Shown here in pieces: positions 18,255 through 21,200 of a stretch of 64,000 nucleotides of DNA. The position numbers and the translations under genes were made by a program. The stretch's first letter is position 1; the number at the start of each line of letters is the position of its first letter. The notes under the pieces were generated by a model. The model was not told the origin of the DNA. It did no database searches and saw only the letters and a program-made list of their open reading frames with translations. The stretch is from Myxococcota bacterium (lineage in GTDB: Bacteria; Myxococcota; UBA727; JAHDBA01), in contig JAHDBA010000005.1 of assembly GCA_020630615.1 (NCBI GenBank), positions 38,709 through 102,708 of the forward strand, written 5' to 3'.

Positions 18255-21200
18255 ATGTTAGAGCAACAAAAGGATCGAAGAAACCAATCACGAATAGCAA
18301 CCTCATCCTATATCGCTTTAATGCTTGTTATGGGTGTTGCGCCAAACCTCTATGCCATTTGTGGCGATGCTATCTTTGATGCAGGCGAAGAATGTGAAGA
18401 TGGAAATGCTCTCTCCAATGATGGTTGTTCTTCGACGTGTCAACTTGAATGGGAATGCGACAATCGTTTTATACGTCGTCCCAATGGTGTCAGTTCGGAC
18501 AATGCTCCAGCTCCTTTTGGCTCGAATGTTCTCGGTCGAACCTTAGATATCTCCTCGGTGACCGGCTATGTTCCCAGTGTTGACTTGAGTGGAGGTGAAG
18601 TCATCACCTACACGATGTCTGAAGATGTTCATACCAATGGTATTAACGTCGATAACCAGGTCAGTGGTTCGTCATTTTTTAGTGCAGCAGGGATTCAGAA
18701 TTTTGACTTGGTATTTCGCGACAGTGCTGGAAATATCTTGATGACCCTGAGTGGTTTAACCTTGGTCAACACGGACGGGCAACAAATCTTAAACTTTCCA
18801 GGTTATATCCTAAATGTTCGCTCCTTTGAGTTTCGAGTTCAGAGTATTTATACATCGTTGAGTTCTCGTGATGGTCAATGGAGCGACATCGGTCTCGCAA
18901 CCCATCATGAGTGCTGTGGGGATGGTGTGACCGGTGCCCTCGTTGATCCGCCAATCTCAGGTTTCCCTGTGGCCGAAACATGTGACGATGGCAATCGGTC
19001 CCGTGGAGACGGTTGTAATGATACATGCCAAGTTGAGGAATGTGGAAATGGTATTGTCGATCAAGGTGAGGGATGTGACGATGGCAACCTCACGCCTGGT
19101 GATGGATGCAATCAAGTGTGTCTTCAAGAGCTTTGTGGCAATGACTTTCTAGACGTCGGTGAAGAGTGTGACGACGGAAACAATATTGCGGGTGATGGTT
19201 GTTCTTCGATCTGCAACGATGAAATCTGCGGCAACTCTATCGTCGATGTTGGTGAAGAATGCGACGACGGTGCAACTATTAACGGTGATGGATGTTCATC
19301 CACCTGTGTACGTGAAATTTGCGGTAATGGTGTTCTCGACCCCGATGAGGAATGTGATGATGGCGGTGTCGCTTCGGGTGATGGTTGCAACGCCATTTGT
19401 CAGCTTGAGGACTGTGGCGATGGAAAAGTCGATGTCGGCGAAGCCTGCGACGACAATAACAATACGTCTGGTGATGGTTGTTCGAGCACATGTACGATTG
19501 AAGTCTGCGGTAATGGTGTCATCGATGCCAATGAGCAATGTGAAGATGGCAACACAGAACCTGGGGATGGCTGTGACGGCTTATGTCGCCTTGAAGCCTG
19601 TGGAAATGGGCGCGTTGATTTCGGTGAGGCGTGTGATGATGGAAATGCGCTTTCAGGTGATGGTTGTTCAGCAGCCTGCAAACAAGAAATCTGCGGCGAT
19701 GCGACAGTCGATCAAGGCGAAGCCTGTGATGATGGTAACACTGAGAATGGTGACGGATGCTCCGCAACGTGTGAGCGTGAAATCTGCGGTGACGGTACCG
19801 TTCATGTCGGTGAAGCGTGTGACGATGGTAACAATGCTGCGGGTGATGGATGCAATCCATTATGCCAGGTTGAAGAATGCGGAAACGCTCGCGTGGACTT
19901 CGGTGAAGAATGTGATGATGGAAACATTCTCGGCGGAGATGGTTGTTCAGCAATGTGTGCTCTTGAAATTTGCGGGAACGGAGTTTTAGATCCGGGTGAA
20001 GAATGCGACGATAGTGGGACAAGCGGAGGTGATGGTTGCTCTGCATCATGTACGACTGAAGTCTGCGGGAATGGAACCTTAGACTTGGGCGAACAATGTG
20101 ATGATGGGAACACGAGCGTGGGGGATGGCTGCTCCGACCTGTGCGGAATCGAAGCTTGTGGAAATAACAATCTCGATAGTGGTGAAAGTTGCGACGATGG
20201 CAATCTCATTCCGGGCGATGGATGTTCTCCCCTTTGCGGAATCGAAGAGTGCGGGAACGGCGTGCAAGATCTTGGTGAAGGCTGCGACGATGGCAACGAC
20301 CTTGATGGTGATGGCTGTTCTTCATTGTGTGTGCTCGAGTCATGCGGGAATGGAATCATCGACCCACTGGAAACCTGTGATGATAGCAACAACGAGGGTG
20401 GCGATGGATGTAGTGCAGGCTGCCAGCTCGAAGAATGCGGAAACACTTTTGTCGACGTAGGTGAGCAATGTGACGACGGCAATGTCACTTCGGGTGACGG
20501 ATGTGATTCAACGTGTGCGATTGAAGTTTGTGGTAATGGTATCTTGGATGATAATGAAAATTGCGATGATGGCAATGTCGATGCAGGAGACGGATGCGCA
20601 CCGGATTGTCTGCTTGAGGAATGCGGCAATGGAGTTCAGGATATTGATGAACTTTGTGATGACGGGAACACGTCGCCTGGCGATGGTTGTGATGAGAGTT
20701 GTAAGACCGAGCTTTGTGGTGATGGGATTCTTGATATTAATGAAGCTTGTGATGATGGTAATATTGTGGATAACGACGGATGCTCTTCGTCCTGTCGGAT
20801 TGAAAACCTATGTGGAAATGCCAACGTTGATGCAGGTGAGGAGTGTGATGATGGCAACAACGACAATGATGATGGTTGCTCGAGTGTTTGTGTTTTAGAA
20901 AACTGTGGCGACGGTACTCGAAACAACGGTGAGGGATGCGATGATGGAAATACCCTCGATGGAGATGGATGTTCGTCAACATGTCAACCTGAAGTCTGCG
21001 GTGATGGAACCTTGAATGCGGGAGAAGAATGTGACGATGGTAACATTCTTGACGACGATGGGTGTTCATCGACATGTGAACTGTCCTCAACGGAGGAGAC
21101 TTGCCTGATGGACAGCGATTGTTCGGAAGGATGTTGTAGCGAAGGCTTATGTTCGCTTGAGGCATGTCCCGAAATATTAGATGGCCCGGATTGGCCAGGG

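Follow-up and report, generated by a model that had tools for sequence, protein, structure and literature searches.

The stretch of DNA analysed here (hereafter the window) comprises 64,000 nucleotides (nt) of contig JAHDBA010000005.1 from a Myxococcota bacterium (assembly GCA_020630615.1, positions 38,709 to 102,708 of the forward strand). At positions 18246-21332 of its + strand lies a complete open reading frame (ORF) for a protein of 1028 amino acids (aa), 106 of which are cysteines (10.3%); the ORF starts with GTG, and an ATG follows three codons downstream. Its product, large and probably secreted, is shown here to be an ordinary member of a known, uncharacterised repeat family, TIGR02232/DUF4215. 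Splitting the translation at the core C[DE]D[GSNA] yields 24 units, one isolated and 23 in tandem, and divides the protein into the following parts:

18246-18356, + strand (aa 1-37): putative Sec signal peptide, recognised by inspection (basic n-region KDRRNQSR, hydrophobic IATSSYIALMLVMGVAP, with the boundary falling between LYA and I)
18360-18452, + strand (aa 39-69): isolated N-terminal TIGR02232 unit
18453-18911, + strand (aa 70-222): orphan non-repeat head domain of ~150 aa, without a convincing homolog
18915-21089, + strand (aa 224-948): 23 tandem TIGR02232/DUF4215 units
21090-21215, + strand (aa 949-990): short cysteine-rich linker (TCLMDSDCSEGCCSEGLCSLEACPE)
21216-21329, + strand (aa 991-1028): tripartite C-terminal tail, a candidate MYXO-CTERM-like sorting signal read from the sequence

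A first-pass annotation of the window had placed about 23 tandem repeats at 18910-21085. The number of tandem units is confirmed, with the isolated unit to be added, and the array occupies nearly the same interval. Cysteine accounts for 12.7% of the array, and the 714 residues from 235 to 948 carry a net charge of -166. Some homologs also have cysteine-rich C-terminal stretches that resemble the linker. We rejected antisense ORFs within the array, such as the one at 19802-20629 (- strand), as by-products of its repetitive GAT/GGT/TGT codon content, since the family signal is carried by the + strand ORF alone. Looked up by exact sequence from either of two alternative starts, the protein had no record, and no ortholog of the gene was found in any collection searched.

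The repeat unit and its family

An alignment of 23 units, consisting of 22 tandem units and the isolated one and excluding the insertion-bearing first tandem unit, defines a repeat of 31 aa with four cysteines and the consensus CGNGxxDxGExCDDGNxxxGDGCSxxCxxE, in which C1, G2, E10, C12, D14, D21, G22, C23 and C27 are invariant. The excluded unit, which starts at aa 224, has an 11-aa insertion in its first half. Spacings between tandem units are highly uniform, at exactly 31 aa in 21 of 22 cases and 32 aa in the other; among the regular units alone, 20 of 21 spacings are 31 aa. The same regularity is visible in the DNA as a period of 93 nt: at that lag, identity is 0.571 vs 0.314 +/- 0.0096 in codon shuffles (z = 26.7), and identity at lag 108 (0.32) is at background. 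The first-pass annotation had thus given the consensus string correctly, a string that itself holds 30 residues and four cysteines, and had misjudged the dimensions around it, proposing a 36-aa unit, a 108-nt DNA period and six cysteines per unit where we find 31 aa, 93 nt and four invariant cysteines.

Membership of the family is clear from both available models. NCBIfam TIGR02232 (myxo_disulf_rpt, cysteine-rich acidic repeat) scores 685.5 bits (E = 4.6e-212) over 24 stretches of the protein against a curated cutoff of 20.8 bits, which bears out the resemblance to TIGR02232 that the first-pass annotation had proposed to check by such a scan, and Pfam PF13948 (DUF4215) scores 340.3 bits (E = 7.8e-104) over 19 stretches against a gathering threshold of 27 bits. 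A database search with the whole protein found at least 7008 proteins at E <= 1e-10 when 8000 candidates were scored. The best of these are 1000-1700 aa long, have long arrays and are ~50% identical to our protein in the repeat region only (~69% of the query). Those that bear organism names come mostly from metagenome-assembled genomes (MAGs) of Myxococcota (Polyangiaceae, Kofleriaceae, Sandaracinaceae, Bradymonadia), with a few labelled otherwise, for example Acidobacteriia, so the earlier attribution of the family mainly to Myxococcota agrees with our results.

Beyond the array itself, these relatives are diverse. Their arrays are fused to varied domains (LTD, PA14, PPC, FG-GAP/VCBS, Kelch, C-type lectin, P-domain, choice-of-anchor A), and unit number varies widely among them. 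Several bear the name MYXO-CTERM protein or have a tail made of GC, a hydrophobic stretch and RRRR; many others have no C-terminal tail of that kind. The array described here is unusually regular, as runs of at least five units at exactly 31 aa occur in only 18 of the 120 best matches. Each unit also contains an internal echo, with ExCGNGxxDxGE in its first half and ExCDDGNxxxGDG in its second, and families of direct repeats in the DNA show alternating spacings of 33 and 60 nt. This echo suggests that the unit may have arisen from an 11-residue Ca2+-loop motif.

Positions 39307-41469 of the window encode, on the - strand, a second member of the family, 720 aa long, which Pfam matches at E = 6e-20 and TIGR02232 at E = 2e-32 over 3 stretches. 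Its N-terminus resembles a lipobox (LIFAISCSDD), it contains about six cysteine repeats of a looser kind, and an HExxH motif (LLMHEVTHSLG) lies in its C-terminal region, so that the protein may be a lipoprotein metalloprotease.

Relation of the unit to animal calcium-binding modules

A full-length phmmer search against PDB sequences gave no match, and only a profile of the unit was productive. The 23-unit profile matches one copy in each of the human metalloproteinases PAPP-A (pappalysin-1; CGDGIIQKDQGEQCDDMNKINGDGCSLFCRQEV), at E = 5e-8, and PAPP-A2 (pappalysin-2), at E = 1e-6. In PAPP-A the match covers residues 867-899, which correspond to 947-979 of the precursor and are part of domain M3 (S944-G995). 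Kobberø et al. (PMC9579167) describe M3 as small and built of coils and strands, with cryo-electron microscopy density that indicates two Ca2+. According to the same study, each of the M domains has intradomain disulfides, and no sequence similarity had previously been reported for M1-M6; its supplement contains no text listing of the residues that coordinate Ca2+ in M3.

The first half of the unit leads to a second group of proteins. A profile of unit positions 1-15 matches the start of the disintegrin region of ADAM17 at E = 0.008. In ADAM and P-III snake-venom metalloproteinase (SVMP) proteins this region contains the shoulder Ca2+ site II, with consensus XCGN(X)3EXGEXCD, where the ligands are the side chains of Asn, Glu, Glu and Asp together with two carbonyls, and where the Ca2+ is buried and resists removal from ADAM22 by ethylenediaminetetraacetic acid (reviewed by Takeda, PMC4885070). 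Unit positions 1-13 (C-G-[N/D]-x3-D-x-G-E-x-C-D) have a spacing equal to that of the site II consensus. Oxygen-donor residues occupy all four site II-equivalent positions in 20 of the 23 units, and 14 of the 23 fit the relaxed pattern CG[ND]x3[DE]xG[DE]xC[DE]. Pfam Disintegrin is not matched; at E <= 0.01, Pfam reports only DUF4215. The second half of the unit (C-D-D-G-N-x3-G-D-G-C) echoes the first and keeps D14, N16 and D21 in 20 of 23 units, a composition that would fit a second Ca2+ site.

Structural modelling points in the same direction. We predicted the structure of five consecutive units with AlphaFold2 (AF2) from a 49-row alignment of in-register five-unit windows taken from this protein and its homologs. 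The model has a mean predicted local distance difference test score (pLDDT) of 76.2 and consists almost entirely of coil with short beta-bridges. When it was compared with the PDB using Foldseek, 31 of 33 matches were to PAPP-A/PAPP-A2 or ADAM/SVMP structures, mostly the latter. A single modelled unit superposes on PAPP-A with a root-mean-square deviation of 1.0-1.1 Å over 32-33 residues at 52-56% identity, with Foldseek E-values of only 0.0065-0.24. Binding of Ca2+ by the units is thus plausible on good comparative grounds.

Head domain and C-terminal tail

The head domain (about aa 66-235) found no match in word-indexed, genome-collection or Joint Genome Institute metagenome scans. An exhaustive HMMER search with it returned five weak matches, all to repetitive proteins and without a Pfam family that recurs consistently, and we rejected these as evidence of homology. 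A single-sequence AF2 prediction of aa 35-389 reached a pLDDT of 33 and was unusable. Two models of the F5/8 type C (discoidin-like) domain of NADase toxins matched weakly, below threshold (NF047619, E = 0.0036; PF25302, E = 0.045), and the head is possibly a discoidin-like binding module.

At the other end of the protein, the chain reads ITGGVHHCQTSSGQ, with ITGGVHHC(998)QTSSGQ from aa 991, then the hydrophobic stretch SLLVLCFALLSLLS, the pair RR and the terminal QLLHLVNA. A MYXO-CTERM signal combines a cysteine-containing signature, an uncharged transmembrane helix free of proline and a cluster rich in arginine. Here the cysteine and the helix are present, the basic cluster is limited to RR and is not terminal, and the usual GCGC motif is absent. 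A comparable tail occurs on another secreted protein encoded in the window:

11806-15534, + strand: C25 (gingipain/PorU-like) peptidase/RTX secreted protein of 1242 aa, with RTX Ca2+-binding nonapeptide repeats

The tail of this protein (about 15397-15531) reads GVDRGCATSSSS-PFLTLFGFALILW-RRN; at 15.3 bits it falls just short of the 15.85 cutoff of the MYXO-CTERM model TIGR03382. The arrangement G-V-x-x-C-x-T-S-S, helix, RR is common to the two proteins. Because the same tail stands on a second secreted protein, it is more readily understood as a dedicated sorting signal than as a chance helix, and its sharing by two secreted proteins within 64 kb suggests a divergent signal of the MYXO-CTERM type.

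A candidate surface stalk

On balance we favour, while allowing a substantial chance of error, the interpretation that the gene encodes a secreted, probably surface-anchored stalk protein in which an array stiffened by Ca2+ and disulfides presents the head as an adhesin or receptor. The protein would be exported by the Sec pathway and would then fold oxidatively as Ca2+ is loaded. Processing of the tail, with lipidation of its cysteine and myxosortase-like cleavage, would be followed by export and surface display, and the acidic array would then serve as a rigid, disulfide- and Ca2+-stiffened stalk presenting the orphan head to a ligand. Each unit would be a small module with little regular secondary structure, held together by two disulfides and by structural Ca2+ on the conserved Asn, Asp and Glu residues. 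In this scheme we infer Ca2+ binding, disulfide formation and the stalk role, as well as the processing of the tail, for which TraA of Myxococcus xanthus serves as the analogy.

TraA combines a signal peptide with a PA14-like head, cysteine-rich repeats proposed to form a rigid stalk, and a MYXO-CTERM tag (PMC3325183). Experiments support both its processing by myxosortase and its display at the surface (PMC3325183, PMC11980579). Cleavage of this tag by myxosortase depends on the tag cysteine, anchoring at the surface requires myxosortase, and the presumed route of export is the type II secretion system (PMC11980579). A link between the repeat itself and adhesion comes from diatoms, where the adhesive trail protein Ca5255 has twelve DUF4215/Myxococcus cysteine-rich repeats (bioRxiv 10.1101/2023.03.06.531300). 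Two observations lend further weight to the proposed scheme: the same kind of array bears interchangeable heads in homologs, and a DUF4215 protein is found in diatom trails. The role in calcium binding or adhesion that the first-pass annotation had guessed has gained support, of an indirect kind, from the homology to PAPP-A M3, the site II spacing shared with ADAM proteins and the DUF4215 protein of diatom trails.

Several observations weigh against this interpretation. At the level of the unit, Ca2+ binding is transferred from one eukaryotic module; the two Ca2+ of PAPP-A are assigned to the 52-residue M3 domain and not specifically to the 33-residue unit; and the strict ADAM site II consensus is met by none of the 23 units, as position 7 is Asp and not Glu. 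At the level of the array, the five-unit model has a predicted TM-score of 0.33, so the geometry between units, and hence rigidity, is not established. The head is without an identified fold. As to the tail, no CTERM model, TIGR03901 and TIGR03382 included, matches it even at E <= 10, its basic cluster consists only of RR, eight residues before the end, and no gene for a myxosortase-like/CPBP protease lies in the 64-kb window. This absence would be expected of a housekeeping sorting enzyme, for which linkage to its clients is not expected. To our knowledge, TIGR02232 arrays have never been the subject of an experiment.

Some of these points on the tail also feed a different view of where the protein resides, which we consider unlikely if far from negligible: that it is not anchored at the surface and is either tethered to the inner membrane, with the array reaching across the periplasm, or released as a Ca2+-binding matrix component. 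A tail that goes unrecognised by the CTERM models and ends in a weak basic cluster would suit such a fate, as would the precedent that TraA without its MYXO-CTERM is released to the medium (PMC11980579). Moreover, many homologs do without a tail of this kind, and the diatom DUF4215 protein is a secreted component of the trail. Set against this is the C25/RTX protein, which shares the tail and is borderline for the MYXO-CTERM model.

Divergence of the array and the remaining alternatives

The first-pass annotation had held that the units are similar enough in DNA for slippage or recombination to alter their number, and this does not stand. Tandem Repeats Finder reported no array in positions 17000-23000, because the repeats are too diverged at the DNA level. 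Aligned in register, the 23 tandem units have a mean pairwise DNA identity of 57.6% (maximum 69.9%), and adjacent units, with a mean of 58.2%, are not above the overall mean. The longest exact word shared within the array is 17 nt, with none of 18 nt or more. There is no super-repeat either, as identity falls smoothly over lags of 93, 186, 279 and 372 nt.

The distribution of the differences is informative about the age of the array. Identity between units is 65-68% at codon positions 1 and 2 and 39% at position 3. Pairs of units that share an amino acid at a column also agree in codon in 46.8% of cases, vs 45.0 +/- 1.3% expected from the codon usage of the array, and in 42.9% of cases when only adjacent units are considered. 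Because codon sharing equals the codon-usage expectation, synonymous sites are saturated; the array is old and maintained by selection on the protein, and it bears no trace of recent duplication or gene conversion.

In light of these data, the idea that the array is a contingency locus, where DNA slippage or recombination would alter the number of units and so tune stalk length or antigenicity, is very improbable. In its favour, all units share one reading frame and one length (93 nt), which means that an in-register unequal crossover would keep the frame, and homologs do differ widely in unit number. Recombination of this kind is possible in principle, but the substrate is poor: the low identity between units, the short shared words, the codon sharing at its expected level and the lack of any higher-order periodicity all argue against it. 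A false lead is thereby removed, since the array is not slippage-prone. Least credible of all is a metallothionein-like role in which the cysteines would remain free thiols that chelate thiophilic metals (Zn, Cu, Cd) instead of pairing into disulfides, an idea prompted by the high cysteine content of the protein and its array and opposed by the signal peptide, which places folding in an oxidising compartment, by the intradomain disulfides of the PAPP-A M domains and the disulfide- and Ca2+-stabilised ADAM shoulder, and by the conserved Asp, Asn and Glu partners, which are hard oxygen donors typical of Ca2+.

Genomic context and lineage

The repeat gene sits inside a cluster of protease genes, and each of its flanks carries a copy of a short motif:

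16932-17513: clpP, upstream of the repeat gene
17552-18121: ORF of 189 aa between clpP and the repeat gene, with a weak YbaB/EbfC-like match (Pfam 26.5 bits vs a cutoff of 25.5)
18168-18187, + strand: upstream copy of a 20-nt motif, GAAGGGCTAAAAACATGCGT, in the spacer between the 189-aa ORF and the repeat gene
21379-21398, + strand: downstream copy of the motif, GAAGGGCTCAAGACATCGTT, directly before clpX
21397-22632: clpX, downstream of the repeat gene
22780-25479: lon

Two relatives recovered through Lon (56% identity) have the order clpP, an ORF of 186 aa, clpX and lon, with no repeat gene (L082, 7328-12742; L083, 5360-10778). In these clusters the small ORF and clpX are separated by about 100-115 bp, and the small ORFs of the relatives and of the genome with the repeat gene are homologous (E = 4e-11). 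Since the clusters of the relatives are without it, the repeat gene appears to be a lineage-specific insertion into a conserved protease cluster; its loss in the lineage of the relatives is also possible. It is not a recent foreign arrival, as its GC content at third codon positions (0.41) lies within the range of its neighbours (0.40-0.45).

The flanking motif, GAAGGGCT[A/C]AA[A/G]ACAT…, has two matches in the 64 kb, vs 0.01 expected, one on each flank of the repeat gene, and its downstream copy resembles the clpX leader of L083. This pattern fits a duplication of the clpX leader at the time of insertion; the motif may instead be a shared regulatory or translation-initiation element. A scan for promoters and terminators detected no + strand consensus signal flanking the repeat gene, a result that is uninformative on co-transcription.

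The Lon protein also gives an indication of the host lineage. After an identical copy, the next-best Lon has 57% identity, and the relatives that bear names, at 47-55%, are MAGs labelled Deltaproteobacteria or Myxococcota together with a few Myxococcales isolates. ClpX was uninformative for taxonomy, with a best identity of 63% among the matches listed from the genome-collection scan and matches in many phyla. Run SRR14415274 includes a 1293-bp Logan contig that matches window positions 16386-17678 with 100% identity. The lineage is poorly sampled and probably allied to Myxococcota.

Elsewhere in the window, five large, co-oriented and overlapping ORFs (853, 948, 848, 391 and 1684 aa) occupy 48165-62295 on the + strand, where a single family match was obtained, to a CapC-like (capsule biosynthesis) domain that opens the 948-aa protein. 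At 27719-34001, also on the + strand, the N-termini of several ORFs resemble mevalonate-pathway enzymes by eye (MVWSQAHTNIALIKYWGK, GKVIVGGEHAVVYGHPA).

Comparison with known systems

In overall design the parallel is with TraA and its paralog MXAN_4924, which show the succession proposed for our protein: signal peptide, N-terminal recognition head, cysteine-rich tandem repeats and a cysteine-containing, tripartite C-terminal tag. In contrast to our protein, TraA has repeats of the TIGR04201 type and a PA14-like head, and neither model matches the protein described here. The likeness is therefore a functional analogy of architecture and not a matter of family membership. With the diatom protein Ca5255 our protein shares the repeat, which is there tied to extracellular adhesion; Ca5255 is, however, eukaryotic and has no CTERM anchor, and its link to adhesion derives from its presence in trails and not from a function shown for the repeat.

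For the individual unit, the comparison is with ancillary domains of animal metalloproteinases. The M3 domains of PAPP-A and PAPP-A2 (for example PDB 7UFG, 8A7E, 8SL1) contain one complete copy of the unit, although there it occurs singly, inside a eukaryotic metalloproteinase and with a 2-residue insertion, and not as a tandem array. The Ds subdomain of ADAM and SVMP proteins has the site II spacing, with turns stabilised by disulfides and buried Ca2+, but it corresponds to the first half of the unit only, and ADAM domains do not form tandem arrays either.

Two broader proposals suggest themselves, which we advance tentatively and regard as somewhat doubtful. First, the TIGR02232 unit could be the free-standing, iterated form of a Ca2+/disulfide module that is single in metazoan PAPP-A M3 and present as a half-unit at the start of ADAM disintegrin domains, in which case a bacterial stalk repeat and ancillary domains of animal metalloproteinases would share ancestry. 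Second, the repeat protein could be a lineage-specific receptor of a deep-branching lineage, with an orphan head, a divergent cysteine-containing tail and a gene inserted into the cluster of clpP, the small ORF, clpX and lon and possibly co-transcribed with it. Apart from these proposals, the analysis offers a testable model of the repeat, in which each 31-residue unit has two disulfides and probably binds two structural Ca2+. Tied to the solved structure of PAPP-A M3 and to the well-studied site II of the ADAM proteins, this model could guide the study of DUF4215 proteins, of which predatory and social bacteria have thousands.

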